A stretch of 64,000 nt of DNA from an uncultured Gammaproteobacteria bacterium (GTDB lineage Bacteria; Patescibacteriota; Microgenomatia; Levybacterales; GWA1-39-11). The position numbers and the translations under genes are program-made. Each line of letters opens with the position of its first letter. The stretch's first letter is position 1. Positions 36,029-63,261 of the stretch are shown piece by piece. The stretch is from positions 705,793 to 769,792 of the forward strand of contig CAYRKM010000001.1 in NCBI GenBank assembly GCA_964425075.1, read 5' to 3'. The notes under the pieces were generated by a model. The model was not told the origin of the DNA, did not search any database, and was given only the letters and a program-made list of their open reading frames with translations.

Positions 36029-36808
36029 ATGAAAACAGTAATATTGGCAGGTGGCTTAGGATATAGATTAAAGGAAGAAACGGAATTTAAGCCAAAACCA
36101 ATGGTCCTAATAGGTGGTAAGCCAATGCTTTGGCATATAATGAAAATATATTCTCACTATGGTTTCAATGAATTTATAATAGCACTTGGTTATAAAGGAG
36201 ACTACATAAAGCAATATTTTCTAAATCAACAACATTACGCTAACAACTTCACAATAAACACAAAAACAGGTGTCACAAAATTTCATAAAAAGGATGAAAG
36301 CATAGATAATTTCAAGATAACCTTTGTTAATACAGGTGAGGAGACACAGCCAGGAGAAAGAATATTAAAAATAAAAAAGTTTATTCCTAAAGAGGATAAG
36401 TATTTTATGGTTACATATGGTGATGGAGTGGCAGACATTAACATAAAGGAGCTTGTTAAGTTTCACAAAAAACAAAAAACAATAGGTACTGTTACGGGAG
36501 TCCACCCAGGTTCTAGCAGATATGGTCTTTTGAAAGAGAATAGTAAAAATATAGTTACAGAGTTTGCAGAAAAGCCTATGGTGAAAGAAACAGTGAATGG
36601 AGGTTTTATGGTTTTTGATAAAAAAATATTTAATTTCATAAAAGAGGGGGAATTGGAACATGAAGCTCTTAAAAGACTCATCAAAATATCTCAACTTTCT
36701 GTTTTTAAGCACAGTGGATTTTGGCATTGCATGGATACATATCGCGATGTAGACGATCTTAACAAGTTATGGATTGAAGACCCCAAGTGGAAGTTATGGC
36801 GGGATTAA
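36029..36808 (+). CDS. rfbF: Glucose-1-phosphate cytidylyltransferase
   Basis: 259 aa. ILAGGLGYRLKEETEFKPKPMVLIGGKPMLWHIMKIYSHYG closely matches RfbF/DdhA. Confidence 0.8.
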   Translation: MKTVILAGGLGYRLKEETEFKPKPMVLIGGKPMLWHIMKIYSHYGFNEFIIALGYKGDYIKQYFLNQQHYANNFTINTKTGVTKFHKKDESIDNFKITFVNTGEETQPGERILKIKKFIPKEDKYFMVTYGDGVADINIKELVKFHKKQKTIGTVTGVHPGSSRYGLLKENSKNIVTEFAEKPMVKETVNGGFMVFDKKIFNFIKEGELEHEALKRLIKISQLSVFKHSGFWHCMDTYRDVDDLNKLWIEDPKWKLWRD

Positions 36809-37749
36809 CAAAACAAACTGTCCTTGTTACCGGTGGAACCGGATTTATTGGAAGTCATTTATCTTTAGCTTTAGCCAAAGCTGGATTTTCTGTAGTTGTA
36901 TTGGATATTGCAGTTAATCCTAATTCCTTTTTCTCGGTTGAAAAAATATATAGCTCCGTAATATTTGAGCTTTGTGATATTCGTGATAAAGATGCTGTCT
37001 TTAATATAGTACAAAAACACTCTCCAGACTATATTTTTCATCTTGCTGCAGAACCCATTGTGGAGAAAGCATTCGAGAATCCCTATTCTGCATTTGAGAC
37101 TAACATAATGGGTACGGTCAATGTCTTGGAGGCAGCACGTGGAAATGAAAATATAAAAGGTATTATCGTGACCTCCTCAGATAAAGCATACGGCAAAACT
37201 TTAAAAGCTTACACAGAAAACTCTGCTCTAAAGGGAGACCATCCATACGATGTTTCAAAATCAGCGCAGGATTTGATATCTCAAACATATTTTAAGACAT
37301 ACAATATGCCAATTGTAATAACACGCTTCGGTAATGTATATGGAGAGGGAGACATTCACCTAAACAGAATAATTCCTGGAATTTGTGAAGCGGTCATTAA
37401 AAATAAAACGCTTCAAATTAGAAGTAATGGAAAATATGTAAGAGATTATTTGTATGTTGGGGATGTTATTGCTGGATGTTTAGTGCTTTTAGAAAAATTT
37501 GAGAACAATATTGGGGAAGCATTTAATTTTTCATCAAGTGAGGGAATGAATGTCATTCAGGTCGTAAGATTAGCAGAAAAAGTTCTTGACAGAAAAATTC
37601 CTTTTAAAATTCTTGATATTGCCAAAAATGAAATTCCATATCAGCATCTTGATGACAAAAAAATTCGTAGGTTGGGTTTTAAGAATAAAGATAATTTTGC
37701 AAGCACTTTCCCAAAAATTATTACCTGGTACAGAAAAATTATTACTTAA
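36787..37749 (+). CDS. rfbG: CDP-glucose 4,6-dehydratase
   Basis: VTGGTGFIGSHLSLAL, CDIRD, IFHLAAEPIVEKAFENPYSAFETNIMGTVNVLEAAR and NIKGIIVTSSDKAYG align with RfbG/DdhB. The likely start is Met at 36796. Confidence 0.7.
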   Translation: MEVMAGLTKQTVLVTGGTGFIGSHLSLALAKAGFSVVVLDIAVNPNSFFSVEKIYSSVIFELCDIRDKDAVFNIVQKHSPDYIFHLAAEPIVEKAFENPYSAFETNIMGTVNVLEAARGNENIKGIIVTSSDKAYGKTLKAYTENSALKGDHPYDVSKSAQDLISQTYFKTYNMPIVITRFGNVYGEGDIHLNRIIPGICEAVIKNKTLQIRSNGKYVRDYLYVGDVIAGCLVLLEKFENNIGEAFNFSSSEGMNVIQVVRLAEKVLDRKIPFKILDIAKNEIPYQHLDDKKIRRLGFKNKDNFASTFPKIITWYRKIIT

Positions 37750-41798: not shown

Positions 41799-44700
41799 AT
41801 GCAGTTTATTAAAAAAAACCACTTTTTCTTTGAGATTGCATTTATTGTTCTTTTAAGTCTTATACCCCTCATCTGGTTCTCTCCACAACATATGATTTTT
41901 GGTAGTGATTCGGGTTATCCATTGGATTATGTTCAGTATTTTATTCAAAGAACCTATACTTGGACATCTGCCCAGAGCTTCGGTGAAGACATGTCGACAT
42001 TTATGGGAGCATTGCCACTCCATGGAATTCAGTTCGTTCTATCCATTCTAGGAATACCGTATTTTGATATCCAAAAAGTAACTTTAGTGTTTTGGTTTGC
42101 TTCGATCGCCTTTGCAATGTATTTCTGTGTAAAGTATTTTTTTAACAAACCTGAGCATTGGCCGATAAGACTAATATCTGTTGTTCTTTACTCTATCAAT
42201 TTTTACATCTTCCTTTTTTGGACAATAGGTTCTCAAACTACTTTAAGCGCTTATGTATTGTTACCGCTCAGTTTTCTTATTGTATTCATGTTTATAGATA
42301 AGAAAATCTCTCCCATACTTGCCGCAGTTTGTTTTAACTTATCCTACTTAGTTTTTAATGCAGGAGGAATAGGTGGAGTACCGCTTTTAGGTCCTGTTGC
42401 CGTAACCATTTTGAGTGGAATAATTTACCAGTCTATATTCACATTCAACAAAGAGTTCTTTGTGAGAGTACTAAGTCTTCTATTTTTTTCATTTATAATC
42501 TTTCTTGGATTAAATGCCTACTTTCTTTTTCCTTTTCTTTCTTCATTTGCTCAGCAGTTTAATACCCTGGTCGTAAAAAGTGGTGGTATTGATGGAGTTA
42601 TCGAATGGACAAATTTTATAAGCAAGTACGATAGTTATGCAAATCTGTTTAGACTACAGGGGGATAATATTTGGTATACGACGGAAAAAACATATGCTAC
42701 GCCGTATCTTAATAACCCAATCCTTATTTTAGCTAGTTTCAGTTTTCCAATACTTGCTTATTTTGTTCTATTTTTTAAATTAGAATATCGGATAAAAAAA
42801 CTTGTTTATTTTTTAATTACCATTTCATTGGTTGGGATTTTTTTATCAGCAGGTTCTCATGATCCATTGGGCTTTTTATATGAGTTAATGCTTAGGTTTA
42901 TCCCTGGATTTGCAGCATTTAGATCAGCTTTCTATAAATTTATGCCGTTGGTTCTTCTGCCCTTTTCAATCCTTATTGCAATGTCAATTTACATGATTTC
43001 ACAAAAAATTAGAATGTCTTATAGATTTTTAATCCCTATTATATTTATTTCATCTATTTTCGTTTATCACTATCCATTTTTTAATGTAGGAAATTTTTTG
43101 ACAAATAACACATTCAGCACAATGATTAAGATTCCAAATTACGTTACCAAATTTGTTGAAGAAAAACCTCCGCCAAATGATCAGTATCGAACTTTGGTTT
43201 TACCTCCATTTGACGATAACTATGCTATTGAGGCATACAAATGGAGTTATTTTAGTGGATATCCAATATTTCCGGGCGTTAGTAATAAGTCATTTATAGA
43301 GAACAATGCTTATTTAAATACTAATGAAGGAATTTTGGTGAACAGGCTTTACAAATTATTACGCAACGAAGAATATGATTTGTTTGTCGAAGAAGCATCA
43401 AGATTAAGTATTAGATATGTCCTTTTAACATCAGATGTCCATACCGAGATTACACCTCGTGAGGATCCTAAATTTTATCAAAGTAAATTGAAAACTAGCT
43501 ATTTTAAACCCGTTTGGAGCAATGGCCCATGGAGTATTTATGAAATTAACAGACCAACTAATTCAAAATTTCATGCATTTAGTGCCCTTACGTCATTTAA
43601 TGGAGAAAATCTTGAGGTACTTCCAATTCTCCCAGCCGGCAATAACAAATTTATTGAAAAAACAAAACAACATCCATCAAGTTCTTTAAATAGTGCAATA
43701 GATTCTATCAAATGTTCGTCTTGTATTTCTGTTGACAATGAGGACTTAGTTGCGGAACCACCAATTATTTTACCCAACTCCATATTTTACTCAATAAAGC
43801 TTTCTCGTGAAAGCAAAATAAATCCAAACCCATCAACAAATCAAGCAATTTACGATTTATTGGGAAGATCTCAAATAAGACTTTCTGAATTAAGAGGATT
43901 ATCTCAAATTCCAGAGATAAACGATGAAAATTGGTTTAAATCTATAGGTTTATTGACATCTAACTGGGCAACGATTTCAAGGATTCAAGATGAAAATACA
44001 GCAAATGATCTTTATCTTTTTAATAAATTAGAGAATTATAGTCATTTTCAGATAACCAATCTTAAGGAAATTTATTTTTACGAACCAGTTGGCAAAAGTA
44101 AAAAAATGGGAGGCTTGATAAGAGAGGCAATTGCAATGATCGAGAAAGTTCAGATAAAAAATGAAAGTAATATACAGAAAACAGAGAGTGGAAATATGTT
44201 TACATATAATATTGATTCTTTAACTCTTTTACAGAAGTCAAATCTAATTGTTGATCATGTTAGCCTTATGAAAAATGAGAATGGCGGTGTGATTTATCCG
44301 AATGCAATTAAATTTGATAATAACGAACCATTAAGTATTTATGCACAAAATGACACTAAGGACATTGTTATTCCAATACCCAAGATAAATCCAATCAAGA
44401 AAATCACTTTGTTTTTTCCGGAGAAAGAAAATAAATTTGTCTTTCCACGAGAAAAAGTTATCAACTCATCCTTTTTCAAGAAGGAAAGCTGCATTACTGG
44501 AGACATTAAAGACTTCAAATGGTATAAGACGTATCGCGTTACTTCAAAAATTGTTGGTAGTCCCGATAACCTGCATGTTTATATTACAAATATTTCAGCG
44601 GAAAAGCCCGATGCTGAAATATTTAAACCCGACAGGATAATTGACATTGATAAAGCAAGCATTAGGTATTTACATGTTGACATTCAAGGACGAGAAAACA

Positions 44701-45179
44701 CAACAGCTGTTCAGATTTATTTTTGTGCTGATCCTGGTAGAAATCCTTTTGGAGCATATCTAGATACAAGGGTAGAGGAAGTTTACACACCAATTATGTA
44801 TATAAAAAGTGATTTAAGAGAGAGCAACAAAATTGTTCCCAAGATTAGTTACAAAACAGTTACTCCAACAGAATACAGAATCAAAATTAATAATGCATCA
44901 ACACCGTATTTTCTTGGATTTTCAGAAAGATATTCTGACTTTTGGGAATTAAAAGATTTATCAACGGGTAAGGTAATAGAGGCTAAACATTTTACTCTTA
45001 ATGGTTATGCGAATGGATGGCTAATAACAAGAAAGGGCACATATGAGCTTGTATTAAAATTCACTCAACAGAGTATATTTAATACTGGATTTAAAATAAG
45101 CATAATATCTATATTATTAGTTGTTTTTTACTTAATAAGTAAGATTAGGAGTAAAAAAAATAAAAATGGAAAAATTTAA
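41799..45179 (+). CDS. Giant polytopic membrane protein (1126 aa): N-terminal multi-TM GT-C-like domain, extracytoplasmic domain of about 600 aa, C-terminal TM anchor
   Basis: SDSGYPLDY acidic motif after TM1, then 12 or more TM segments to about residue 440, then a long hydrophilic region. The C-terminus FSERYSDFWELKD...GTYELVLKF plus a TM helix is paralogous to the C-terminus of 52621..54612. Confidence 0.5.
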   Translation: MQFIKKNHFFFEIAFIVLLSLIPLIWFSPQHMIFGSDSGYPLDYVQYFIQRTYTWTSAQSFGEDMSTFMGALPLHGIQFVLSILGIPYFDIQKVTLVFWFASIAFAMYFCVKYFFNKPEHWPIRLISVVLYSINFYIFLFWTIGSQTTLSAYVLLPLSFLIVFMFIDKKISPILAAVCFNLSYLVFNAGGIGGVPLLGPVAVTILSGIIYQSIFTFNKEFFVRVLSLLFFSFIIFLGLNAYFLFPFLSSFAQQFNTLVVKSGGIDGVIEWTNFISKYDSYANLFRLQGDNIWYTTEKTYATPYLNNPILILASFSFPILAYFVLFFKLEYRIKKLVYFLITISLVGIFLSAGSHDPLGFLYELMLRFIPGFAAFRSAFYKFMPLVLLPFSILIAMSIYMISQKIRMSYRFLIPIIFISSIFVYHYPFFNVGNFLTNNTFSTMIKIPNYVTKFVEEKPPPNDQYRTLVLPPFDDNYAIEAYKWSYFSGYPIFPGVSNKSFIENNAYLNTNEGILVNRLYKLLRNEEYDLFVEEASRLSIRYVLLTSDVHTEITPREDPKFYQSKLKTSYFKPVWSNGPWSIYEINRPTNSKFHAFSALTSFNGENLEVLPILPAGNNKFIEKTKQHPSSSLNSAIDSIKCSSCISVDNEDLVAEPPIILPNSIFYSIKLSRESKINPNPSTNQAIYDLLGRSQIRLSELRGLSQIPEINDENWFKSIGLLTSNWATISRIQDENTANDLYLFNKLENYSHFQITNLKEIYFYEPVGKSKKMGGLIREAIAMIEKVQIKNESNIQKTESGNMFTYNIDSLTLLQKSNLIVDHVSLMKNENGGVIYPNAIKFDNNEPLSIYAQNDTKDIVIPIPKINPIKKITLFFPEKENKFVFPREKVINSSFFKKESCITGDIKDFKWYKTYRVTSKIVGSPDNLHVYITNISAEKPDAEIFKPDRIIDIDKASIRYLHVDIQGRENTTAVQIYFCADPGRNPFGAYLDTRVEEVYTPIMYIKSDLRESNKIVPKISYKTVTPTEYRIKINNASTPYFLGFSERYSDFWELKDLSTGKVIEAKHFTLNGYANGWLITRKGTYELVLKFTQQSIFNTGFKISIISILLVVFYLISKIRSKKNKNGKI

Positions 45180-47218: not shown

Positions 47219-48901
47219 ATGCCTTTTAAAACCCTACTTACTTTTCTCAAAATTTTCTCCATTTTCTTCATAGTTATTTTTATATCGACATTTGGTGTAA
47301 TGAATGGTTATTTCGAGCAGGATGAATGGATGGGGATTGCCAATACAATGAAGTTTTTAAATGATCCTTGGTGGAGAGTTTTTATTCCAACCAATCTTCA
47401 CTTTTCTCCCATCGGAATCTCATTTTGGAATAGCATGTATTATATTTTTAAACTTCATGCTGAGTATTACCACCTGGTCCAACTTATTGTTCATGCTTCT
47501 GTCTCCACTTTAGTTTGTATTCTAGCTTTTCGCTTGACTAAAAATAAGACAATTGCAGTTTTAACTGGAATGATGTTTCTACTAAATGGAAGAGCACATC
47601 AGGGATTTACACATCTAGCAATTTTTCATTCAACTGATACTGCAATGTTTTTTATACTTCTCTTTTTCATTTATTTTACAAGTATTAAAGAAAAGGTTGT
47701 AAATATAAAAAAGGCTTGCATTTTGCTTTTGATTTTTCTTGGAGCGGTTTTTACTCGTGAAGAGGGTTTTATTATTCTCCCACTTTTGGCAGTATACGTT
47801 GTACTCTTGGATAAAAATAAAATAAGCAAAAAAAACATAAGACCTGCAGCGCTTTTTGTCATGGGTGTTGCGCTTTTTGTAATATTTAGGTTCTTTACTC
47901 AATCTCTTTATACAGAACCTATACCAGTTCAATATCAAATCACTGGAGTAGGTGCAGAATATAATCTAGCAACAATTCCGATTAAGTTTGTTGTCCAAAA
48001 TCTCATTTGGTCAGAAAGAATCGCCCAATTTTTTGTGGTAAATACGCCTGGCCTATACCCAGACATAGAAGGTTTTTTTACCAGTCATGCGCCAATTATG
48101 GATGCAGCCTTTTTCTACATATTTGGATTACTTTCCTTTTCTTTTGCTGTATGGATTTGGTTGATAAAGCCAAAGAACTTTGCTCCAATATTTACCTTTC
48201 TTCTTACTTGGATTTTTGCAAACGCCTTCATGTTAGCATTTGTTGGTAGACATATATCGGTTGTTGAACCAAGGTATTTATATTATTCTGCATTTCCAGT
48301 CCTTTGCCTTATTTCTATATTTGTATATTTTTTGTATGTGTCTAATTCAAGTATAAAACTCATCAATATGGTCAAGAAAGGTATAGCAGTTTTAATAATT
48401 TTGATTTTACTTGGAACATCTGTGCAGGAGATTAGATTCGCCGTCAATCGTACAGAAAGAGATGGTTTAGTGAAAAGAAAAGTATTTGAGAATTTATTAA
48501 AGGTTCATCCAAAGCTTGCTAAAAACACAATATTTTTTGTTAAGTGCAAAACTGAATGCTACAGAAATTCAGAGCTTGGTATAAGTCCTAAGAATGTATT
48601 ACCTTTTTCCTCAGGACCCGGAATGAATATTCTAATTACCTATGCTTCTCTTCAAAAAGAAGAGAAAGAATGGGGGCCATTCTTTAGTGAGTTTTTTATA
48701 TTTTATACCTTTTCAGAAGACTATAAGAAAATAGGAGATAGAAGTTTTGGTTATTTTGTAACAAAGGATAAATTAGAAGAAGCATTGATAAAGAATAAAT
48801 TACCGAAGGAAACTGTAATAGCATTAGAGCTTAATGAAAGAGATTATACATTTCGCAACATAACGCCTGAATTTATTAAAAGCCTAAATATAAATAGATG
48901 A
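47219..48901 (+). CDS. Polytopic membrane protein, GT-C-like (unassigned)
   Basis: 560 aa. EQDEWMGIANTMKF acidic motif after TM1, then multiple TM segments and a C-terminal soluble domain. Confidence 0.45.
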   Translation: MPFKTLLTFLKIFSIFFIVIFISTFGVMNGYFEQDEWMGIANTMKFLNDPWWRVFIPTNLHFSPIGISFWNSMYYIFKLHAEYYHLVQLIVHASVSTLVCILAFRLTKNKTIAVLTGMMFLLNGRAHQGFTHLAIFHSTDTAMFFILLFFIYFTSIKEKVVNIKKACILLLIFLGAVFTREEGFIILPLLAVYVVLLDKNKISKKNIRPAALFVMGVALFVIFRFFTQSLYTEPIPVQYQITGVGAEYNLATIPIKFVVQNLIWSERIAQFFVVNTPGLYPDIEGFFTSHAPIMDAAFFYIFGLLSFSFAVWIWLIKPKNFAPIFTFLLTWIFANAFMLAFVGRHISVVEPRYLYYSAFPVLCLISIFVYFLYVSNSSIKLINMVKKGIAVLIILILLGTSVQEIRFAVNRTERDGLVKRKVFENLLKVHPKLAKNTIFFVKCKTECYRNSELGISPKNVLPFSSGPGMNILITYASLQKEEKEWGPFFSEFFIFYTFSEDYKKIGDRSFGYFVTKDKLEEALIKNKLPKETVIALELNERDYTFRNITPEFIKSLNINR

Positions 48902-51460: not shown

Positions 51461-52621
51461 ATGAAAAGCACCGCCAAATCAATAATATATGTAAATTATT
51501 CCCCCTACGAAAATTCTGGAAAAATATTAGATTATCTGTTAGAGAATTTCAAAATTGTGTGTCTTTTTTCAATCGGGTTCCACAGTTTGGAGAACAAAAA
51601 AAATTATAATATCCTCTCAATTTACAAAAAAGGTAAATTAATTGAAACTTATTCCTTGTTTCAATTACCCATTCCGCAAAATTTAGTTTTTATTCTTATT
51701 CCAATAAGGTCTGCAATTTCTTTTATAGAAATTATTATTTATTCAATATGGTTAAAGAATAAGTTTAAGAAAATTGACATTTATTTCACTGCAAATGCAT
51801 TCACTGCCTGGATAGGAAAAATTTTGAAGTCATTTCGAATTGTTAATAGGACTGTATTTTGGGTGTGGGATTATTACCCTCCAATTCATGAGAATAAATT
51901 GATAATGCTAATGCGCTATGTTTATTGGCAGTTTGATAAGATGAGTTCTCACTCTGATACGGTAGCATTTGTTAATCAAAGGTTACTTGATTTGAGAAAA
52001 GATATTGGAATTTATCCTAAGGACTCAGAATACCCTATTGTGCCAATTGGAACAGATAAAATTAAAATCAAAAATGAAAAAAAAGTGCGCAAGAAATTGA
52101 AATTTGGATTTATTGGTGTATTAAAGAAGAGTCAGGGGGTTGACATAATATTTAAGAATGCAAATGACTTAACCAAGAAATTTGGGGAAGTGAAGTACGA
52201 GATAGTTGGCTCTGGACCTGATGAAAAGTATTTTAAAGGTAGAGCTAGAAAATCTGGTATAAAAACAACCTTTTATGGATATCTTGAAGGGGATTCGTTT
52301 AACGACGTTTTAAAAGATTGCACTATTGGAATTGCAACATACACTTCTGAGGCTAGTAATGTTTCTCAGTATGGAGATCCAGGTAAAATTAAGAGATATT
52401 TGAGTTTGGGGATCCCGGTGATTACAACTGATATAATTGAATTTGCAGAAGAAATTGAAAAGTCTGGCGCAGGTGTTATTGTAAAATATAATGATAAGAA
52501 ATCTTTAATGGAGGCAGTTGAAAAAATTATGAATAAGCAGGAGGAGTATAGGAAGAATGCATATAAGCTTGGCCAAAAATTTTATTATAGAAAAATTTAT
52601 CCGCAGATGTTTGCAATTTAA
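51461..52621 (+). CDS. GT-B glycosyltransferase (GT4-like)
   Basis: 386 aa. C-terminal Rossmann domain with FGFIGVLKKSQG...GDPGKIKRYLSLGIPVITTD. Confidence 0.5.
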   Translation: MKSTAKSIIYVNYSPYENSGKILDYLLENFKIVCLFSIGFHSLENKKNYNILSIYKKGKLIETYSLFQLPIPQNLVFILIPIRSAISFIEIIIYSIWLKNKFKKIDIYFTANAFTAWIGKILKSFRIVNRTVFWVWDYYPPIHENKLIMLMRYVYWQFDKMSSHSDTVAFVNQRLLDLRKDIGIYPKDSEYPIVPIGTDKIKIKNEKKVRKKLKFGFIGVLKKSQGVDIIFKNANDLTKKFGEVKYEIVGSGPDEKYFKGRARKSGIKTTFYGYLEGDSFNDVLKDCTIGIATYTSEASNVSQYGDPGKIKRYLSLGIPVITTDIIEFAEEIEKSGAGVIVKYNDKKSLMEAVEKIMNKQEEYRKNAYKLGQKFYYRKIYPQMFAI

Positions 52622-54612
52622 TGACAAATAGACTAGACAAGATTACTGTACCTACCCTCGTTTTTTTATTAATTCTCTCGATTTTTTATAGGTGGTTTTG
52701 GGGTGGTGTTCTTGCGGGTGGAGACTGGCCATATCTATATCCTCAGGGTGTTCTTGAAGTTGTCCCTTTGTCTTCATGGGATCTTCTTTTTAATAATGGT
52801 ATGGGGCAGAGTGCTTTTCCTAAAATCTGGTTTGACGCGTATTCTCTTTTAATAGTAAAACTTGCCCAATTTTTGCCTTGGGGAGTCTTTGAAAGACTTG
52901 TGTGGTTTTTCCCGTATATTGTGGTTTCTTTTTTTGCTTCTTATTTTCTTGGGAAAAAGATGAATTTGTCCTCAAATTTTGCCTGTCTTGCCGGAGTAAT
53001 TTATTCGCTTAATACCTACATTTTTATGGTTGTTTCAGGGGGGCAGGCTGGTGTCTTTACTGCATATGCTTTTATGCCGGTAGTTTTTTATGGAGTTCTT
53101 AGTTTATTTGAAAATTTTACGTTTAGGCGATCTTTAATCCTCTCCCTTTGCTTCTCGATTCTTATGCTGCTCGATTTAAGAGTGGGATATATGTTTTTGT
53201 TTGCTTTGTTTTTATTTACTATTGTTAATCTCACTTTTTATCCTAAAGGTTTTATTAAAAAAGTAATGTTAATATTTACAGTTCCGGGAGTTGTTGCATT
53301 TCTCTTGCATATTTTTTGGATAGGTCCAATTTTAATAATGAGAAGAAATCCAGCCGTAGAACTTACGGATGTTTATACATCCTCATCAACTTTAGATTTT
53401 TTTAGTTTTGCCAGACTTGAAAATGCAATAAGCCTTCTGCATCCCAACTGGCCTGATAATATTTTTGGGAAAGTAGCATTCCTAAGACCCGAATTTTTAA
53501 TAACCCCAATAATAGTATTTGTGTCACTTCTCTTTGTTGAAAAAGAGAAAAAATCTAGAAAGTTGTATTTATTGTCATTCATGCTGTTGGCATTATTTGG
53601 AATTTTCCTGGCAAAAGGTACCAATGATCCTTTTGGGGAAATATACAGAACCGCTTTTAACGTCATTCCAGGTTTTGTAATGTTTCGCGACCCAACAAAG
53701 TGGTACATGCTAATTGCTGTCTCTTTTTCAGTTTTAATTCCTTACTCACTTTCTAAGCTGACAGAAATTTTTGTAAACTTGAAATTTAAAAAGGCGGAAT
53801 TAATAGTATGTGCTGTGTTTCTTATTTTTTGGGCATTTATTATGCAGGATGCTGTTTCTGGAAAGGTTAAGGGAACTTTTTATCCTCGGCAGATTCCTTC
53901 AGAATTTAGTAGTCTTGCTGAGAAAATTTCCAATGATAAAGAATTTTATCGAACACTTTGGGTGCCAACATATCCTACGCTTGCTTATGTTTCCAATACG
54001 CATCCGGCAATTCCTGGAATCGAATTTTTTAAGGCAACTTCACTCGACAACCTATTAAATAATCTTGAAAAAGGAAATAATATAACTCAACTACAATATG
54101 CATCTGTTAAATATGTAATTTTACCTGAAGACATTTATGGAAGGATTTTTGTAAATGATAGAAAATACGATGACAACGTATACAAAAGAGCTCTTGATAA
54201 ATTGGAAAAAAATTCAAATATAAAAGAGGTAGGTAGATACGGTAAAAATGTTGTTTTTGAAATCAAAAACCCAAAACAGCATTTTTGGTTGGAGAACAAC
54301 TCTGCTAAAGTGAACTACAAATATGTCTCTCCCACCGAATACATCTTGGATATCTCAAACGTAAAGAAGGGTGACAGGCTTATTTTTTCAGAAACTTTTG
54401 ATAAATTTTGGGAGGCAAAAAACGATAAATTTGTTGTGGGTAGTGCTCAATTTGGCAGGTTTAATAGTTTTAGTCTGCCAAAAGAAGGAACTTATCAATT
54501 TAGGGTTATTTACAAACCTCAGGCATGGCTAAATATGGGTTTATTTATAAGTGGAGCATGCTTATTAATTGTCGCGATTTTAATTATCAAGATTAAGGAT
54601 AAAAAAATATGA
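52621..54612 (+). CDS. Polytopic membrane protein, GT-C-like, with extracytoplasmic C-terminal domain and terminal TM anchor; related to 41799
   Basis: 663 aa. GGDWPYLYPQ motif after TM1. The C-terminus FSETFDKFWEAKND...EGTYQFRVIYKP plus a TM helix parallels the C-terminus of 41799. Confidence 0.5.
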   Translation: MTNRLDKITVPTLVFLLILSIFYRWFWGGVLAGGDWPYLYPQGVLEVVPLSSWDLLFNNGMGQSAFPKIWFDAYSLLIVKLAQFLPWGVFERLVWFFPYIVVSFFASYFLGKKMNLSSNFACLAGVIYSLNTYIFMVVSGGQAGVFTAYAFMPVVFYGVLSLFENFTFRRSLILSLCFSILMLLDLRVGYMFLFALFLFTIVNLTFYPKGFIKKVMLIFTVPGVVAFLLHIFWIGPILIMRRNPAVELTDVYTSSSTLDFFSFARLENAISLLHPNWPDNIFGKVAFLRPEFLITPIIVFVSLLFVEKEKKSRKLYLLSFMLLALFGIFLAKGTNDPFGEIYRTAFNVIPGFVMFRDPTKWYMLIAVSFSVLIPYSLSKLTEIFVNLKFKKAELIVCAVFLIFWAFIMQDAVSGKVKGTFYPRQIPSEFSSLAEKISNDKEFYRTLWVPTYPTLAYVSNTHPAIPGIEFFKATSLDNLLNNLEKGNNITQLQYASVKYVILPEDIYGRIFVNDRKYDDNVYKRALDKLEKNSNIKEVGRYGKNVVFEIKNPKQHFWLENNSAKVNYKYVSPTEYILDISNVKKGDRLIFSETFDKFWEAKNDKFVVGSAQFGRFNSFSLPKEGTYQFRVIYKPQAWLNMGLFISGACLLIVAILIIKIKDKKI

Positions 54613-54836
54613 AACCACAGGACTTAGTATTTATTGCAATAATTATAATATTATTTTTTCTAAAAAAACCAAGAGCGATGGTAGTAGCTGGTTTAGTTTG
54701 TCTTTTGCTTGCTATTCCATTGTTTGGCTTCTGGATATTTTTTACTGCACAAAGATTAACTTATTATGCAGCAGGTTTTTTTCTTGCCGCGAGTATTCTA
54801 TATTTGTGGTTTCTAAGGATAAAAAATACTAAATGA
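54609..54836 (+). CDS. Small 2-TM membrane protein
   Basis: 75 aa with two hydrophobic helices. ATGA-coupled to both neighbouring genes. Confidence 0.35.
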   Translation: MKPQDLVFIAIIIILFFLKKPRAMVVAGLVCLLLAIPLFGFWIFFTAQRLTYYAAGFFLAASILYLWFLRIKNTK

Positions 54837-56008
54837 TAAATTTAATTAAATCAACATTCTATAATGAGGAATTAACTAAGAAAAAATTAGCCTCTTTTAT
54901 CAAGCGCTCTACTAAATTAAGCTTTGGAAATTACTGTCAGAAATTTGAGAAACAATTCGCAAAGTACCAGGGCAGAAAATATTGCATATTTGTAAATAGT
55001 GGAAGTTCGGCAAATTTAGCTTTGATTCAGTCTCTTCTTAACCTTAGGAAAATTAAGAAAGGGGATAGAGTAGGATTCTCTGCTTTAACATGGTCTACAA
55101 ATGTTATGCCACTTATCCAGTTGGGTCTTGAACCTGTACCAATTGATGTGGAGCTTTCGACCCTTAATATTTCAAGCAAGACGCTTCAGTTAACACTTAA
55201 AAAAAATAAAATAAAAATGTTGTTTCTTACCAATCTTTTGGGATTTTGTAGCGACATTGACGAAATTCAAAAAATTTGCAAGCAAGAAAGAATAATTTTA
55301 ATCGAGGACACATGCGAATCATTGGGAACTGTTTATAAAGGAAAAAAACTCGGAAATTTTGGTGTCGCTTCTACCTTCTCCTTTTATGTAGGACATCACA
55401 TGTCAACAATTGAAGGAGGAGCAATAGTAACAGATAGTTTGGAGCTTGCAAATCAATTAAGAATTGTAAGAGCGCATGGGTGGGATAGGAATCTTACATT
55501 AAAGCGGCAGGAAAAAATGAGAAGCAATTTTAAAGTGAATTCAACATTTTATTCTCGATACACATTTTATGATTTGGGTTTTAATTTAAGGCCTACAGAA
55601 ATTAATGGATATATAGGTTGCTTGCAAATTCAGTATATCAATGAAATTACAAGAACCAGAAACAAAAATTTTTTTGAGTTTGCAAAGAAAATATATTCTC
55701 GTACAGATAAATATTATCCGATTAGCTTTTCGCATATTGATTTTGTATCAAACTTTGCAGTTCCAGTTATTTGTAAGACTAAAAAAATCAGAGATGAATT
55801 AGTTGAAAAGTGTGATAATAAGGTTGAGATACGTCCAATTGTGGGAGGGAATATTGTTTCTCAGCCCTTTTTTGCAAAATATTTTTCATACTCAAAAAAA
55901 GATAATCCAAACGCTTCTCTTGTCCATGAACAGGGATTATACTTTGGTAACAATCCTGAATTAACAAAAAGAGAAAAGAGCGAGATTATTAAGATTTTTG
56001 CGGATTAG
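54833..56008 (+). CDS. DegT-family PLP/PMP-dependent sugar 3-dehydratase (ColD/E1 (RfbH)-like; His replaces the catalytic Lys)
   Basis: 391 aa. EDTCESLG, TFSFYVGHHMSTIEGGAIVTD and RAHGWDRNL match the ColD/E1 3-dehydratase pattern, in which His replaces the PLP-binding Lys. Confidence 0.6.
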   Translation: MINLIKSTFYNEELTKKKLASFIKRSTKLSFGNYCQKFEKQFAKYQGRKYCIFVNSGSSANLALIQSLLNLRKIKKGDRVGFSALTWSTNVMPLIQLGLEPVPIDVELSTLNISSKTLQLTLKKNKIKMLFLTNLLGFCSDIDEIQKICKQERIILIEDTCESLGTVYKGKKLGNFGVASTFSFYVGHHMSTIEGGAIVTDSLELANQLRIVRAHGWDRNLTLKRQEKMRSNFKVNSTFYSRYTFYDLGFNLRPTEINGYIGCLQIQYINEITRTRNKNFFEFAKKIYSRTDKYYPISFSHIDFVSNFAVPVICKTKKIRDELVEKCDNKVEIRPIVGGNIVSQPFFAKYFSYSKKDNPNASLVHEQGLYFGNNPELTKREKSEIIKIFAD

Positions 56009-56714
56009 TTGAAGGTGCATTTTTTACTCCATACAAAAACCACTTAAAATAACTTGGAAGCCACTTCAAAAGTTTGAATTTTGATGTTCCATGTATTCTT
56101 TCTTTCCAAACAGTGGGAACTTCATCAATTTTGTAACCCAATCTATATGCCTTAACAGTTAACTCAAGAGGGAGTTCGAACCCGCCAGTGCTTTCAATTT
56201 TTATATCTTTAAGAATTTCTCTTCTAAAACATTTAAACGCATTTGTTGCGTCTAATGTATTAATTCCTGAAAAGCGATTTAGAAGAGTACTTCCTATCCT
56301 TGAAAGCCCGCCTTTTATTTTCGGACCGCCAACTCTTTTCCCTCCACGGCTATATCGAGAACCTGAAACAAAATCTGCACCAGAATCAAGTTTTTTTACC
56401 ATTTTATCTACGTCTTTTGGATTATCTGAAAGATCTGCCATCATAATACAAACATATTCAGTTTGGGATTCTTCAAGACCCGTTTTTAGAGCCTTAATAA
56501 CACCAATCCCATACTTATTTTTAACAAGTCTTATATCTTTGTTCCCTTTGCCCCATTTCTTAATAGCATTAATTGTTGGGTCAGTATTTGTGTCATAGAT
56601 AAAATTTATAATGTAGGGCGTTTTGACATAAGAAGTAATACCCTTTAGCAAAGGAGGAATATTTGCTGCCTCATTGAAGACAGGTATAACGAATGTAAGT
56701 TTCTTTTTTTTCAC
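55989..56714 (-). CDS. GT2, polyprenyl-phosphate sugar synthase type (Ppm/ArnC-like)
   Basis: 241 aa. LTFVIPVFNEAANIPPLL...MMADLSDNP. Last gene of a three-gene minus-strand operon. Confidence 0.65.
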   Translation of the reverse strand: MKKKKLTFVIPVFNEAANIPPLLKGITSYVKTPYIINFIYDTNTDPTINAIKKWGKGNKDIRLVKNKYGIGVIKALKTGLEESQTEYVCIMMADLSDNPKDVDKMVKKLDSGADFVSGSRYSRGGKRVGGPKIKGGLSRIGSTLLNRFSGINTLDATNAFKCFRREILKDIKIESTGGFELPLELTVKAYRLGYKIDEVPTVWKERIHGTSKFKLLKWLPSYFKWFLYGVKNAPSTNPQKS

Positions 56715-57970
56715 TAGTCAGAATTAATTCGATATATAATTTTATTTTTCCCTAAAACATTCCAAATATCACACACTAAGCAATTTTTTTTGACCAACCT
56801 TTTAATTTTATTAATATTTAACTTTCTATAGTCCTTATGATTTGTAGCAATAAAGATTAAATCAGCGTCTTTAAGTGCTTCATATGGGTCTTGAATAATT
56901 TCCTGATTTGCATAGCTTTTGACATATGGGTCATGAAGAGTTAATTTTGCTCTTTCGCGAAGCAGTGCTTTTCTAACTTTAAAGCTTAATGACTCTCTAA
57001 TATCATCAATCTCCGATTTGAATGAGAGCCCCAAGATTACAGCTTTTTTGCCATCTAGCTTCATGCGTTCACGTATAAGTTTTACTAGGAGAAGTGGAAT
57101 TGATTCATTGATTTTCCAACTTGTTGTAATCAAGTCAATATATGGAATATCTGAGATTAAAAAGAATCCATCTTTAAAAAGGCAAGGTCCACCAGTAAGC
57201 CCTGGCACGGTTAGTCCTCCGCGTTTGTACTTATAATTTACAAGATTCACAATTTCATAGATATCCCGATGGTAATTTTGTGCAAGCAGCATAAATTCAT
57301 TTGCAATCGCAAAATTAATATAGCGATACATATTCGTAAAAAGTTTTGCAAGTTCTGCAGATGTGTCATCAGTAAGTAGGGTTTGAACGCCCATTTTTTT
57401 AAAAATTTCCTCTGCCTTTTTTGCGCTTTTCTTATCAACTCCACCAATAATTTGTGGGATTTCACGCATTTCGTCCAAAGAATTTCCTTCGGCAATTCTT
57501 TCGGGGCAGAATGCAATATAAAAGTTTTTTCCGGCAATTAAATTTGCTTTTTCTTCTATTAAAGATTTAACAAATTGAGTTGTTCTTGGAGAGACAGTAC
57601 TTCTTAGAATGAGTGTTTGATTCGGTTGTAAGTAGCTCATTGCAGAGGTCAGTGCTTGATTGATTTGGTCAAGAATTGGGTTCATATTCTCATCAACGGG
57701 CGTTCCAAGGGTTAGTATAACGTAGCTACATTCTGAAATTACCGAATAATCTGTTGTAAAATTCAAACTTTTTTTTATATTTTTGCGAAGTAATTGGGTT
57801 GCGCCTTTTTCCATAAAGGGCATTTTTCCACGCAATAGATTACTTATCTTTTCCTCATTCTTACCAACTCCATATACCATGTATCCTAATTCCGACAAGA
57901 ATAAAGCCAGCGGAAGCCCAACTCTCCCAATCCCTATAACTGCAATTGATTCTTTTTGTTTACTCTCCAT
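56714..57970 (-). CDS. Nucleotide-sugar 6-dehydrogenase (UDP-glucose/UDP-ManNAc/UDP-GlcNAc dehydrogenase family)
   Basis: 418 aa. N-terminal IAVIGIGRVGLPLALFL Rossmann motif, central GGPCLFKD catalytic-Cys motif and a C-terminal UDP-binding domain. Confidence 0.7.
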   Translation of the reverse strand: MESKQKESIAVIGIGRVGLPLALFLSELGYMVYGVGKNEEKISNLLRGKMPFMEKGATQLLRKNIKKSLNFTTDYSVISECSYVILTLGTPVDENMNPILDQINQALTSAMSYLQPNQTLILRSTVSPRTTQFVKSLIEEKANLIAGKNFYIAFCPERIAEGNSLDEMREIPQIIGGVDKKSAKKAEEIFKKMGVQTLLTDDTSAELAKLFTNMYRYINFAIANEFMLLAQNYHRDIYEIVNLVNYKYKRGGLTVPGLTGGPCLFKDGFFLISDIPYIDLITTSWKINESIPLLLVKLIRERMKLDGKKAVILGLSFKSEIDDIRESLSFKVRKALLRERAKLTLHDPYVKSYANQEIIQDPYEALKDADLIFIATNHKDYRKLNINKIKRLVKKNCLVCDIWNVLGKNKIIYRINSD

Positions 57971-57971
57971 T

Positions 57972-58919
57972 TTAAAGTTTTGTTAGCCAATTTATCGTTT
58001 CTGGTAGTCCTTCATCTAGCTTAATTTTGGCGCTCCAGCCTAGCATCTCTTTCATTTTTGAAACATCAGGAATTCTATTTTTTACATCAGACCTAAATGG
58101 CTTAACGTGCTTTACCTTAAATGTTTTTGTATTGCCTGAAATTTCCCAAATTTTCTTTGCAAGTTCAAGCATTGTAATGGGTTCATTGTTTGCTATGTTA
58201 AAGTCGTTATTTAATGCTTTTTCACTTTCCATCGTCTTGATTATGCCCTCAGCAAGGTCTTTTACATGAGTAAAACATCTGACTTGATTTCCGTCCCCCA
58301 AAAGCTCAAGAGGATATTGGTCTGATAAAATTTTTTTTGCGAGATCTGGAATTACATGGGCATAGCCTATTTCCTTTTCGGGATATTCATTTATTCCATA
58401 AGCGTTAAATGGTCTACAAATGGTGTAATTTAAGCCAAATTCTTCAAAAAAAGCTTTGCAATATTGCTCACCAATAAGTTTGGAAAAACCATACGAGGTA
58501 ATAGGAGGAAGAGTGGTGTTAATATCTTTTTCAGCTGATGGAAATTTGGTTGCACTCTCAAAAACCATTGATGAGGAAATATATATTATTCTTTCAATCT
58601 TATTTTTGACTGATGCCTCAAAGACTGCAGAATACATTTTGTTGTTTTCGGAGAGAATCGTTGCGGGGTATTTATGAAAATATCCAATCCCCCCAATTTT
58701 CGCAGCCAAATGGATGCAGATATCCATTCCTTCAAGTGCCTTGTTGGCATTCAACTTATCCGTTAAGTCCAAATTTATAAACTCAGACGAATATAGTGGC
58801 TTTTTGTTGTGTTTGCTTAAGTTGTCTACAACTCTTACAAAATATCCTTTTTCAAGAAGTTGCCTTACAATTTCTTGTCCAATGAAGCCTGCACCCCCTG
58901 TTACGACAATCTTTTTCAT
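57972..58919 (-). CDS. NAD-dependent NDP-sugar epimerase/dehydratase (SDR)
   Basis: 315 aa. VTGGAGFIG and catalytic YGFSK. The HLAAKIGGIGY motif is reminiscent of the GME AADMGG motif. Confidence 0.6.
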   Translation of the reverse strand: MKKIVVTGGAGFIGQEIVRQLLEKGYFVRVVDNLSKHNKKPLYSSEFINLDLTDKLNANKALEGMDICIHLAAKIGGIGYFHKYPATILSENNKMYSAVFEASVKNKIERIIYISSSMVFESATKFPSAEKDINTTLPPITSYGFSKLIGEQYCKAFFEEFGLNYTICRPFNAYGINEYPEKEIGYAHVIPDLAKKILSDQYPLELLGDGNQVRCFTHVKDLAEGIIKTMESEKALNNDFNIANNEPITMLELAKKIWEISGNTKTFKVKHVKPFRSDVKNRIPDVSKMKEMLGWSAKIKLDEGLPETINWLTKL

Positions 58920-59039: not shown

Positions 59040-59933
59040 ATGAGTCATATAAATCCTTCAGAGATTGCGATTATTGGTATAGTTTATGAACCAAAATGGT
59101 ATGCAGGGAGGCTTAAAAGCATAAAGCATATAGAGAAAATACGAGGCGACCTTATTTTATATAGCCTTAGATATGCTTCCTCAGTTGGCTATAAAATATC
59201 AATTGTAGACGGTGGGAGCACTAAAACTTTTCAAAAAGAGATAAAAAAAATAAATGGTGTAAATATTGTATTTTCAAAAATCCACAAACGTTCTCCAAAT
59301 AGAAGACGAGCAGTTTTGGAAGGTTCAAAAATTCCTGGTGTAAAAGCAATAGTAATGACTGAGATTGAAAAGGTCACCTTTATTACAGATTGTATTGAAA
59401 AAAGCGTGAAGCCAGTACTTATGGACGAAGCAGATATTGTAGTTCCGAAAAGGGAGGACAAGTTGTTTAAGAAATCATATCCGTTGTATATGTATGAATC
59501 TGAAAGTGAGGGAAATTTACTTTATAATGAGGGGCTTCGGTCTGTGGGTCTTTTATCTCCCCATCAGGAAGATTTAGATGTGTTTTTTGGAACACGAGTT
59601 TTTAAAAATGATAAGAAAATGCTAAAACAGATATTTTCTCACTATGAGGCACATATGTTTGATTCTCTTATCGCACATAATTTATTTGATTTGGAAGAAT
59701 ATTCAAATGGACAATTTTTTCCTGTGGTAAAGGCGCTCGAGAAGGGATATAGGGTAATTTCAGTTACTGTTCCTTTTCAATATCCCGAAAAACAGAAGGA
59801 AAATGAGGATAATGGTGAGAGAGAGCAATTTATTTACAAAAGAAGATTTCAGAAGTTAACTATTGTAATTGAACTTATGCATTTCTTAGGACATATTAAT
59901 AGGAAGAAAACGAGAGCAATACATAAAGTTTAA
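59040..59933 (+). CDS. Hypothetical protein; possible GT-A-like fold
   Basis: 297 aa. ISIVDGGSTKTF recalls the GT2 DGGS motif and MDEADIVV is a possible DxD. No confident family assignment. Confidence 0.3.
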   Translation: MSHINPSEIAIIGIVYEPKWYAGRLKSIKHIEKIRGDLILYSLRYASSVGYKISIVDGGSTKTFQKEIKKINGVNIVFSKIHKRSPNRRRAVLEGSKIPGVKAIVMTEIEKVTFITDCIEKSVKPVLMDEADIVVPKREDKLFKKSYPLYMYESESEGNLLYNEGLRSVGLLSPHQEDLDVFFGTRVFKNDKKMLKQIFSHYEAHMFDSLIAHNLFDLEEYSNGQFFPVVKALEKGYRVISVTVPFQYPEKQKENEDNGEREQFIYKRRFQKLTIVIELMHFLGHINRKKTRAIHKV

Positions 59934-59989
59934 CCATTGTGAGAAACATCATCGGTTAGATTGCCTAAATTTTAACTAAAAAACAGAAT

Positions 59990-60535
59990 ATGAGCAAAAT
60001 TATTGGTATCGATATCAGCCAACTCGCGTACGAAAACACTGGAGTTGCCAATTACTTAGAAAATTTAGTTATAAACCTTATTGAGCAAGATGAGAAAAAT
60101 GAATACGTATTGTTTTTCTCTTCACTAAGAGGAAAAGTTTCCAAAAAGATTGCTTTACTTTCTGCAAAGCAAAATGTGCGGATAAAAACATTTCGATTTC
60201 CACCTTATGCGCTTAATTTTTTATGGAATCAAGTTCACACACTTCCAATTGACACATTAATCGGAAAAGTGGATTTTTTTCTTACCTCAGACTGGACTGA
60301 GCCACCCTTAAGGTCAGGAATTAAAGCAACTATTTTATATGACTTAATTGTTTATAAATACCCTCAAGAGACTGCTGCAAAAATTGTTGACGTTCAAAAA
60401 AAGAAACTTAAATGGGTGAAGAAAGAAAGTAATTTTGTTTTTTGCATTTCAGAGGCTACAAAAAAGGATGCTGAGGATTTGCTTAAAATTGATCCCAAAA
60501 AACTTCATGTAATTTATCCCGGTTTAACTTTGTAA
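59990..60535 (+). pseudogene. GT4 N-terminal-domain-only ORF (181 aa); probable truncated paralog of 60617..61738
   Basis: Starts MSKIIGIDIS like the downstream MSKIIAIDAN gene and the GT4 at 26365. Ends right after the VIYPGLTL N-domain boundary, with no C-terminal Rossmann domain. Confidence 0.4.
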
Positions 60536-61739: not shown

Positions 61740-62342
61740 ATGCAAAAAATAAGAACCTTTCACTTCGCTCAAGAACCTTCCTTTTTGAGGCAAAAAGTAG
61801 AAAGAAGAATTGGGGCGATATTTAACGAGCTTATTTGCGCGAAATTAAGAACAGTTGGGTACATTCCTTTTCATCACATAAGGCGGTTTTTCTATAGAAT
61901 TTGCGGCATAAAAATTGGAAGAGGTTCAGCCGTTCATATGTTTGCGACATTTTATAAGCCAAACAATATCCGTATCGGAAAAGACACCATTATTGGTGAA
62001 TGGGCAGTTTTAGATGGAAGAGACACCCTTGTGATTGGAAATCATGTCGATATAGCTTCACAGGTTATGATTTATAATGCCGAACATGATATTCATTCGA
62101 CTGATTTTAGAAAAGCAAAGACAGGGAAAGTTGAAATAGGAGACTATGTATTTATTGGACCAAGGGCAATTATTTTGCCTGGCGTAACAATTGGAAGGGG
62201 AGCAGTCGTAGCTGCGGGAGCAGTTGTAACGAAAAACGTGGAAGCACTTACGATAGTTGGTGGCATACCTGCCAAGGAGATCGGAAAAAGAGAAGAGGAA
62301 AGCCTTAATTACACTTTGGGTCGCGCTGCATGGTTTAGGTAA
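61740..62342 (+). CDS. Hexapeptide-repeat acetyltransferase
   Basis: IGPRAIILPGVTIGRGAVVAAGAVVTKNVEALTIVGGIPAKEIGKR; homolog of 45545..46159. Confidence 0.65.
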   Translation: MQKIRTFHFAQEPSFLRQKVERRIGAIFNELICAKLRTVGYIPFHHIRRFFYRICGIKIGRGSAVHMFATFYKPNNIRIGKDTIIGEWAVLDGRDTLVIGNHVDIASQVMIYNAEHDIHSTDFRKAKTGKVEIGDYVFIGPRAIILPGVTIGRGAVVAAGAVVTKNVEALTIVGGIPAKEIGKREEESLNYTLGRAAWFR

Positions 62343-62346
62343 TTTT

Positions 62347-63261
62347 ATGCTTACATTCTCCTTCCTAATATTAACGTATAAGTCGTCAGGAGTTATATCT
62401 AAATTTATAAGTACATTCTTGGAGGAAATATTACCAAGCATTAGAAAAGGTGAAAGTGAGGTTATTTTTGTTGACAACATGTCTCCAGATGATACCTACA
62501 AGGAAACATTAAAGAGCCTTTCAAAGTACAAAGAATTAGTGACAGAAGATGGAAAATCATCAAAACCTATTAAAGTAATTCAGAATACAGAAAATGCAGG
62601 TTACGCTAAAGGAATTAATTTTGCCTCCACTTTTGCAAAAGGAGAAATTCTAATTATTGTAAATCCAGATGCTGAGCTTGTAAGTCAGGATTTTAGTAAA
62701 GTTAAGGATAAATTCGACGAGGAAAAAAAACTTGCAATTGCAGGATTAAGACTTGAAACATATGAGCGACAGACAGAGAAAACCGCAGGAAGATTTTTTA
62801 ACCCGCTAACACTTTTTCTTTATGCAATTGGGCTTGAGAATACTTTTTCTTTACGATTTACCCCCGCAAACGAGCAAAAGGTTGATTTTGTAAGTGGAGG
62901 TTTTACTGCAGTAAGACGTGAAATGTTTGAGAAGCTTAAGGGGTATGATATTGACTACTTCATGTATGTAGAAGATATGGATTTGTGTTATAGGGCAAGA
63001 AAAGCAGGATACGAAACGATGTATTTGCCCTATGCTACAATTAAACATCGAGGTCAAGGCAGTTCAAGTAAAGAGTTTGCTATTGTAAATATTTATAAAG
63101 GACTTCAAACTTTTTTTAGAAAACACTCAAGCATGGTTTTTCAATGGTATGTTGGGTGCTTGCTTGCTTTAAAAGCAGTATCTATAATTTTTATAGCCAC
63201 GCTTTTTGGTAAACAAGATGTTGCTAGCACTTATAAAAAGGCATTGCAAACAATTATATGA
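62347..63261 (+). CDS. GT2 family glycosyltransferase
   Basis: FSFLILTYKSSG...IFVDNMSPDDT...NPDAEL. The C-terminus is paralogous to 1..279 and 8689..9621. The start was moved to the ATG immediately after the upstream stop. Confidence 0.65.
   Translation: MLTFSFLILTYKSSGVISKFISTFLEEILPSIRKGESEVIFVDNMSPDDTYKETLKSLSKYKELVTEDGKSSKPIKVIQNTENAGYAKGINFASTFAKGEILIIVNPDAELVSQDFSKVKDKFDEEKKLAIAGLRLETYERQTEKTAGRFFNPLTLFLYAIGLENTFSLRFTPANEQKVDFVSGGFTAVRREMFEKLKGYDIDYFMYVEDMDLCYRARKAGYETMYLPYATIKHRGQGSSSKEFAIVNIYKGLQTFFRKHSSMVFQWYVGCLLALKAVSIIFIATLFGKQDVASTYKKALQTII

Follow-up and report, generated by a model that had tools for sequence, protein, structure and literature searches.

A probable ColD-type sugar 3-dehydratase gene and its convergent overlap

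The stretch of DNA analyzed here comprises 64,000 nucleotides (nt) of contig CAYRKM010000001.1 (assembly GCA_964425075.1, positions 705,793 to 769,792) and is referred to throughout as the window. It belongs to an 835-kilobase (kb) genome deposited as an uncultured Gammaproteobacteria bacterium and placed by GTDB within Patescibacteriota (Levybacterales), and all searches for partner genes described below covered these 64 kb. On the plus strand of the window, an open reading frame (ORF) at 54833..56008 encodes a 391-residue protein of the DegT family. ORF analysis, Pfam and PDB searches, Foldseek and a distance tree point to a ColD-type nucleoside diphosphate (NDP)-4-keto-6-deoxyhexose 3-dehydratase. 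Taken as a whole, we consider it probable that the protein is a sugar 3-dehydratase of this type, dependent on pyridoxal/pyridoxamine 5'-phosphate (PLP/PMP) and acting on the way to a 3,6-dideoxyhexose, and that the overlap of its gene with a convergent neighbor is a by-product of compaction and a recent insertion or deletion (indel).

The ORF begins with an ATG that overlaps the stop codon of a small hydrophobic ORF of 75 residues (54609..54836, plus strand) in the form ATGA, a pairing that is kept in a related locus, L004. Because the N-terminal sequence MIxLIKST is invariant in homologs, the start codon has been called correctly. A match to PF01041 (DegT_DnrJ_EryC1) spans residues 23-388 with E = 3.5e-64 and 217.7 bits against a cutoff of 19.8, and the frame is therefore not a chance ORF in 1.2 kb of DNA with 33% GC. 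This full-length match, together with an aspartate-aminotransferase-like fold, places the protein in the DegT/DnrJ/EryC1/StrS superfamily. An initial sequence-only reading had quoted two motifs from the translation, and both lie within this frame. The active-site motif TFSFYVGHHMSTIEGG occupies residues 181-196 (55373..55420, plus strand) and includes the Gly187-His188-His189 codons at 55391..55399, while RAHGWDRNL occupies residues 213-221 (55469..55495, plus strand) and corresponds to RAHGWTRNL in ColD.

Catalytic histidine, family placement and predicted mechanism

Replacement of the Schiff-base lysine by histidine is the hallmark of 3-dehydratases within this superfamily (PMC8987622; bioRxiv 10.1101/2021.09.04.459008). 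Three independent alignments place His188 of the window protein on His188 of ColD, in the column that holds the Schiff-base lysine of aminotransferases; it also aligns with His220 of E1. In ColD the catalytic histidine is the leading H of 'SHH'; its counterpart in the dehydratase is the leading H of 'GHH', which is likewise residue 188. Since ColD H188N and H188K mutant chains are present in the PDB and are covered by the HMMER alignment, the catalytic position is legible from the alignment itself. Histidine at this position is invariant in 120/120 close homologs and is carried at the catalytic column by all 112 full-length sequences found among the best 150 of a HMMER search of representatives.

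The family name used by both Pfam and NCBI is 'aminotransferase', and the protein could accordingly be taken for an ordinary sugar aminotransferase whose histidine assignment is an alignment artifact. We regard this as highly improbable. The corresponding segment, ASTFSFYVGHHMSTIEGGAIV, contains no lysine at all, and the three alignment methods concur. SFYPGKN stands at the matching columns in true aminotransferases, both PDB entries and proteins of related loci, and aminotransferases fall outside the dehydratases in the tree described below.

Comparisons of sequence and structure rank the characterized dehydratases ahead of the aminotransferases. Among PDB sequences, ColD (WbdK) of E. coli O55:H7 scores 222 bits and E1 of Yersinia 155 bits, followed by a putative NDP-4-keto-6-deoxyglucose 3-dehydratase at 124 bits and by aminotransferases at 108 bits or less. 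BLASTP identities to the dehydratase are 36.9% for ColD, 30.7% for E1, 29.7% for a second His-variant protein encoded in the window and 25.7% for the aminotransferase QdtB. An AlphaFold2 model was obtained with a mean predicted local distance difference test (pLDDT) score of 81 and a predicted template modeling (pTM) score of 0.83. Foldseek returns ColD chains as the top structural matches of this model (template modeling (TM) scores of 0.81-0.83), then E1 and guanosine diphosphate (GDP)-perosamine synthase, with TM scores to family structures ranging from 0.74 to 0.83 overall.

A neighbor-joining distance tree was built from 121 sequences with 50 bootstraps and rooted on five aminotransferases; its sampling is biased toward the best matches of the dehydratase. 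The dehydratase and ColD form a clade in 50/50 bootstraps, with E1 and the window paralog outside, and the dehydratase's own subfamily excludes ColD, also in 50/50 bootstraps. E1 pairs with the window paralog in 27/50. The earlier assignment of the protein to the ColD/E1-like 3-dehydratase branch is thus borne out by the position of His188 and by the grouping with ColD, and neither the alignment error nor the placement among aminotransferases that would have overturned it was found in the alignments and the tree.

Relatives of the dehydratase are abundant, with 7,985 of 8,000 scored candidates matching at E <= 1e-20. The top 120 homologs are 68-92% identical to it, and the few that are named come from Patescibacteria, Levybacteria or Microgenomates. 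Mutual identity within this subfamily, drawn from Patescibacteria/Microgenomates-type metagenomes, is about 70%. Across the 120 close homologs 121 positions are invariant, including Gly187, His188, His189, D159, E162, S183, R213, H215, W217, R219, N251, R253 and R334, all of which save Gly187 (Ser in ColD) are identical in ColD; for D159, E162, S183, R213, H215, N251, R253 and R334 the conservation with ColD holds clade-wide. The HMMER search, which was exhaustive over 1.84 billion representatives, yielded 772 clusters at E <= 1e-30, and approximately 95 representative clusters are nearer to the dehydratase than ColD is. Judged from these sequence comparisons, the dehydratase belongs to a distinct, uncharacterized and Patescibacteria-rich subfamily that, within the 3-dehydratase branch, lies on the side of ColD. 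A literature search for 3-dehydratases in Patescibacteria gave nothing specific, and relatives of the dehydratase are automatically annotated with the E1 (RfbH) name. The dehydratase reading would correct the name of thousands of Patescibacteria proteins that are labeled generically as 'aminotransferase', and it indicates that these bacteria with reduced genomes devote resources to building 3,6-dideoxy sugars into their surface glycans, by means of an enzyme that is unusually conserved at about 70% identity.

The two characterized types of 3-dehydratase differ in how deoxygenation is completed. E1 and SpnQ hold a [2Fe-2S] cluster on four cysteines and require a reductase, whereas ColD is free of any cluster, its enamine intermediate is hydrolyzed and PMP is regenerated from glutamate (PMC8987622); the ColD and E1 mechanisms are described in the same work and in bioRxiv 10.1101/2021.09.04.459008. 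The region of the dehydratase that aligns to the CxCx7C segment of E1 contains no cysteine, and no E3-like (ferredoxin- or flavin-) reductase of Fer2/FAD (flavin adenine dinucleotide) type is encoded across the 64-kb window. The protein thereby shows both features expected of a ColD-type enzyme, lacking the [2Fe-2S] cysteine motif as well as an E3 partner in the window. Five family-invariant cysteines were considered as a new metal site and rejected, as Cys35, Cys314 and Cys327 do not persist among slightly more distant relatives and ColD also has Cys161. Because the E1 cluster cysteines and a reductase in the window are missing, the cysteines do not form a metal site, and residue 187 is variable (see below), we infer a ColD-type mechanism, for which the residues are observed and the chemistry is deduced by homology.

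According to this mechanism, PMP would form a ketimine with the C4 keto group of the NDP-4-keto-6-deoxyhexose. His188, in the place of the aminotransferase lysine, would then act as the general base, taking the C4' proton as the 3-OH is expelled. Hydrolysis of the resulting enamine would yield the NDP-4-keto-3,6-dideoxyhexose and ammonia, and PMP would be remade from PLP using L-glutamate, without an iron-sulfur cluster or E3 reductase. A short-chain dehydrogenase/reductase (SDR) serving as epimerase/reductase would subsequently complete the 3,6-dideoxyhexose, with candidates at 57972..58919 or among the SDRs at 35-39 kb, and neighboring glycosyltransferases would place the finished sugar into a surface glycan.

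Several observations weigh against this reading. Identity to ColD is just 37%, and every member of the subfamily is uncharacterized biochemically. The active-site loops are of low confidence in the AlphaFold2 model. The top NCBIfam match of the dehydratase is the RfbH/DdhC (E1) equivalog NF011936, at 225.3 bits and well under its cutoff of 423. Gly187 replaces Ser187 of ColD and is invariant in the close family, so that a residue by which ColD could be recognized is missing. The serine is a weak marker, however, because the site varies among dehydratases: the 112 representatives carry G in 56 cases, S in 43 and A in 13, and the position has been reported as not conserved (bioRxiv 10.1101/2021.09.04.459008). 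PDB entry 3GR9 is a ColD S187N/H188K double mutant. Finally, the dehydratase has no adjoining 4,6-dehydratase or nucleotidyltransferase in the window, and its end product and nucleotide are uncertain because SDR partners vary among relatives.

Placed beside named enzymes, the dehydratase is an uncharacterized addition to a known kind of enzyme and is neither ColD sensu stricto nor E1/RfbH. ColD, the GDP-4-keto-6-deoxy-D-mannose 3-dehydratase (PDB 2GMS, 2R0T, 3B8X, 3GR9), shares with it the fold, the length (391 versus 390 residues), the catalytic histidine at 188, the HH dipeptide, RAHGW(D/T)RNL, residues D159/E162/S183/N251/R253/R334, the lack of an Fe-S motif and the tree clade. It differs in sequence, in having Ser187, in belonging outside the separate, mostly Patescibacteria-type subfamily and in its gmd/manC/colC neighbors. 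E1 (DdhC/RfbH/AscC; PDB 3BCX), the CDP-6-deoxy-L-threo-D-glycero-4-hexulose 3-dehydrase of Yersinia (CDP, cytidine diphosphate), has in common with it the His-for-Lys replacement and the PMP-dependent C3 deoxygenation that is predicted for the dehydratase. At 31% identity, the dehydratase lacks the cluster cysteines of E1, some 40 extra residues and an E3 gene in the window, and is split from it in 50/50 bootstraps. The C3-dehydratases of C. jejuni HS:5/HS:11, which act on GDP-6-deoxy-4-keto-heptose, carry out ColD-type chemistry with L-glutamate, and separate epimerase and C4-reductase genes follow them, in a layout similar to the cassettes of related loci L007 and L012; these enzymes are 62-67% identical to ColD and use a GDP-heptose (PMC10440746), whereas the window is devoid of heptose pathway genes. 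The closest true aminotransferase by sequence and fold is GDP-perosamine synthase (Per; PDB 3BN1, 3DR4), which transfers an amino group using a Schiff-base lysine (the K186A mutant was crystallized) where the dehydratase has histidine.

Pathway context and candidate nucleotide carriers

The sequence-only reading had also proposed two His-variant dehydratases in the locus, and a second one is indeed present. The paralog at 32806..34008 (minus strand, 400 residues, motif FFGSHIITAGGNGG) is 30% identical to the dehydratase and of a distinct lineage, E1-like where the dehydratase is ColD-like. It scores 216 bits to PDB 3BCX and 339 bits to the RfbH model (cutoff 423). None of the cysteines in the CxCx7C cluster region of E1 is retained, the paralog reading RGWGRSSSLFSESEDINKRF there. 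As the cluster cysteines are replaced and no E3 reductase lies in the window, its sequence suggests an enzyme of the E1 lineage that has become independent of Fe-S. The end of the paralog gene shows a 4-nt convergent overlap with a methyltransferase gene at 31916..32809.

The only sugar-activation pair in the window (36029..37749) adjoins this paralog and lies 18 kb from the dehydratase. Its first member, at 36029..36808 (plus strand), resembles glucose-1-phosphate cytidylyltransferase (TIGR02623, 276 bits against a cutoff of 300); it is the sole sugar nucleotidyltransferase in the window and has no paralog there. Its second member, at 36787..37749 (plus strand), is an SDR resembling CDP-glucose 4,6-dehydratase (TIGR02622, 196 bits against a cutoff of 278) whose top PDB match, 1rkx, is that enzyme; no other gene of the window is a clear candidate for a 4,6-dehydratase. 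Genes facing the dehydratase include a nucleotide-sugar dehydrogenase of 418 residues at 56714..57970 (minus strand; TIGR03026 subfamily model, 341 bits against a cutoff of 190) and, 2 kb from the dehydratase, an extended SDR of 315 residues at 57972..58919 (minus strand). The latter is 33-34% identical to the Fcl-like SDRs that follow orthologs in related loci L017 and L007 and is a candidate epimerase/4-reductase partner on the strength of this similarity.

Gene contexts of relatives were obtained from exact-protein look-ups, and a peptide-pattern scan of contigs, which was too specific, recovered one true ortholog (L007). The orthologs lie in similar co-directional glycan clusters, recurrently beside SDR genes. 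In the next-closest relatives, L005, L021 and L022 (dehydratase identities of 76-83%), an SDR of 352-353 residues lies directly downstream and is translationally coupled through a TAATG junction of dehydratase stop and SDR start (9173..9179, 3506..3512 and 3075..3081 of the respective loci). The same SDR type is found in L012-14 and L007, at a distance of one to three genes. Of the solved structures, CDP-tyvelose 2-epimerase (TyvE) is closest to it, at 138/128 bits versus 75 for deoxythymidine diphosphate (dTDP)-glucose 4,6-dehydratase. A second type resembles GDP-fucose synthase, scoring 183 bits to a PDB entry and 218-222 bits to the Fcl model; L017 has it as the next gene after the dehydratase, and L007 encodes it as well. 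Since both partner types finish known 3,6-dideoxyhexose pathways, those of tyvelose and colitose, they support the function assigned to the dehydratase. A single conserved SDR partner was looked for and not found, with TyvE-like, Fcl-like and other SDRs across the relatives. One further SDR type, that of L007_311 and L012_302, is a candidate for either a 4,6-dehydratase or a 4-reductase.

In the window and in L004, the TyvE-like partner is lost from the downstream position and a facing operon is found in its stead, an arrangement that is derived. Locus L007 (CAYIXE010000001.1), labeled 'uncultured Gammaproteobacteria', holds a 70%-identical ortholog in a compact cassette of SDR, 3-dehydratase, 127-residue ORF, Fcl-like SDR and TyvE-like SDR that is typical of Microgenomates loci. 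Its taxonomic label or binning may be wrong, and the 127-residue ORF looks like a putative small DNA-binding protein.

Two substrates were weighed in detail. As a strict ColD ortholog, the protein would act on GDP-4-keto-6-deoxy-D-mannose in a GDP-L-colitose pathway with a ColC/Fcl-like finishing enzyme, for example the SDR at 57972..58919. ColD is its closest characterized and solved relative, the closest aminotransferase, GDP-perosamine synthase, uses the same GDP substrate, GDP-fucose-synthase-like SDRs follow the orthologs in L017 and L007, and the facing SDR shares the Fcl-like identity given above. The gmd, manC and true colC genes that cluster in such a pathway are, however, not found in the 64-kb window, and its distant Fcl-like SDRs score only 131 and 106 bits against a cutoff of 500. 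Moreover, characterized enzymes of the ColD type share 62-67% identity among themselves (PMC10440746), far above the value for the dehydratase and ColD, and the subfamily of the dehydratase excludes ColD in every bootstrap. Among coupled partners, the type seen most often is similar to CDP-tyvelose 2-epimerase, and the SDR at 57972..58919 matches GalE, GDP-mannose 3,5-epimerase and Fcl about equally. We hold this assignment to be unlikely, if far from negligible.

Alternatively, an enzyme with the ColD mechanism could act on CDP-4-keto-6-deoxy-D-glucose and so provide a route to CDP-3,6-dideoxyhexoses of the paratose/tyvelose type that is independent of E1/E3. The CDP-glucose type of the sole activation pair in the window, the TyvE-like genes coupled to the dehydratase in L005, L021 and L022 and the lack of both Fe-S ligands and an E3 gene in the window would all fit such a route. 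Against it, the CDP genes adjoin the E1-like dehydratase rather than the ColD-like one, two enzymes for one step would be redundant, and a tyvelose-epimerase-like gene was not found in the window. TyvE-like enzymes are, in addition, known to be promiscuous for nucleotides. This substrate is a tentative and rather doubtful proposal. Extended to the Microgenomates subfamily as a whole, it would mean reductase-free, ColD-style C3 deoxygenation of a CDP-hexose for a widely conserved surface sugar of Patescibacteria, with the paralog as another, independent loss of Fe-S; we rate this broader scenario as speculative. If the carrier is CDP, the subfamily would make, without a reductase, sugars for which the E1/E3 pathway is the only known source to date.

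For the nucleotide carrier taken by itself, CDP falls somewhat short of being probable, GDP is rather doubtful, and a carrier other than these two is doubtful to the same degree. The suggestion that two dehydratases might serve CDP and GDP scaffolds is a possible one, with the dehydratase on GDP and the paralog on CDP; it is no more likely than action of the ColD-type dehydratase on a CDP-sugar.

The convergent overlap and the remainder of the window

The gene that converges on the dehydratase encodes a glycosyltransferase of family 2 (GT2) with 241 residues (55989..56714, minus strand; PF00535, E = 4e-23, with weak NCBIfam matches) and is the last of a minus-strand operon. Its product is similar to ArnC/AglJ/PpgS-type polyprenyl-phosphate sugar synthases and has a 93% ortholog in L004. 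The two ORFs do share the 20 nt that had been reported, at 55989..56008, which encode KIFAD* of the dehydratase on one strand and the NPQKS* tail of the GT2 on the other, the GT2 stop codon being 55989-55991.

The same report had proposed that the overlap may cause transcriptional interference or coupling, and this part is not supported. L004 carries a 92%-identical dehydratase in the same synteny (74-residue ORF, dehydratase, convergent GT2, nucleotide-sugar dehydrogenase and SDR), and there the dehydratase and GT2 genes are separated by a gap of 12 nt. DNA alignment of the window with L004 reveals a 38-nt indel directly after the dehydratase stop, and therefore the GT2 frame of the window extends into the dehydratase gene. 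Past a common ...FKWFLYG the GT2 tails are unrelated, with VKNAPSTNPQKS for the window and ITPAPRKDILLEKE for L004. Conservation is seen at the dehydratase end, IIKIFAD/N, where Phe389 is invariant, so that the variable partner in the overlap is the tail of the GT2. None of ten other distinct contexts of relatives has a convergent neighbor, and the overlap is thus not conserved as would be expected of a functional antisense pair.

It could still be argued that the overlap is a selected device in which antisense 3' ends couple or antagonize expression of the dehydratase and the GT2. The ORFs overlap, no terminator-like site or stable hairpin was found near their junction, and the convergent transcripts probably read into each other here, as they must throughout this genome. 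Such a device nonetheless appears very unlikely. Beyond its absence from the close ortholog and the other relatives, tight spacing is the rule in the window, where all four convergent pairs abut or overlap (spacings of -4, +3, -4 and -20 nt), 26 of 44 co-directional pairs overlap and about 97% of the sequence is coding. The 3' regions fold no better than shuffled sequence (z = 0.68 and -0.72), giving no sign of structured RNA. The overlap is incidental, a product of compaction and a recent indel rather than a functional element, and it has no special significance.

By its gene content, the entire window reads as one glycosylation island. It encodes at least nine GT2 and about seven GT1/GT4-type glycosyltransferases, a flippase, and methyl- and acetyltransferases, together with GT-C-like membrane proteins comprising two YfhO, three PMT/PMT_2 and two PTPS_related proteins. 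Just two of the enzymes seen in the window pass their NCBIfam cutoffs. One is the uridine diphosphate (UDP)-glucose 4-epimerase GalE at 20312..21289 (plus strand), whose TIGR01179 match (399 bits against a cutoff of 262) is the sole one to an equivalog model, and the other is the dehydrogenase at 56714..57970. At the thresholds applied, many large ORFs, up to 1126 residues, match neither a Pfam nor an NCBIfam family; ORFs without a family match lie at 41799..45179, 15181..19513, 21292..24754, 47219..48901, 52621..54612 and 59040..60535. Both L001 and L017 encode, downstream of their dehydratase genes, weak relatives (25-26% identity) of the ORF at 52621..54612. Lastly, a TTG-started ORF at 62257..63261 (plus strand) overlaps the preceding acetyltransferase gene by 86 nt, and its true start probably lies further downstream.

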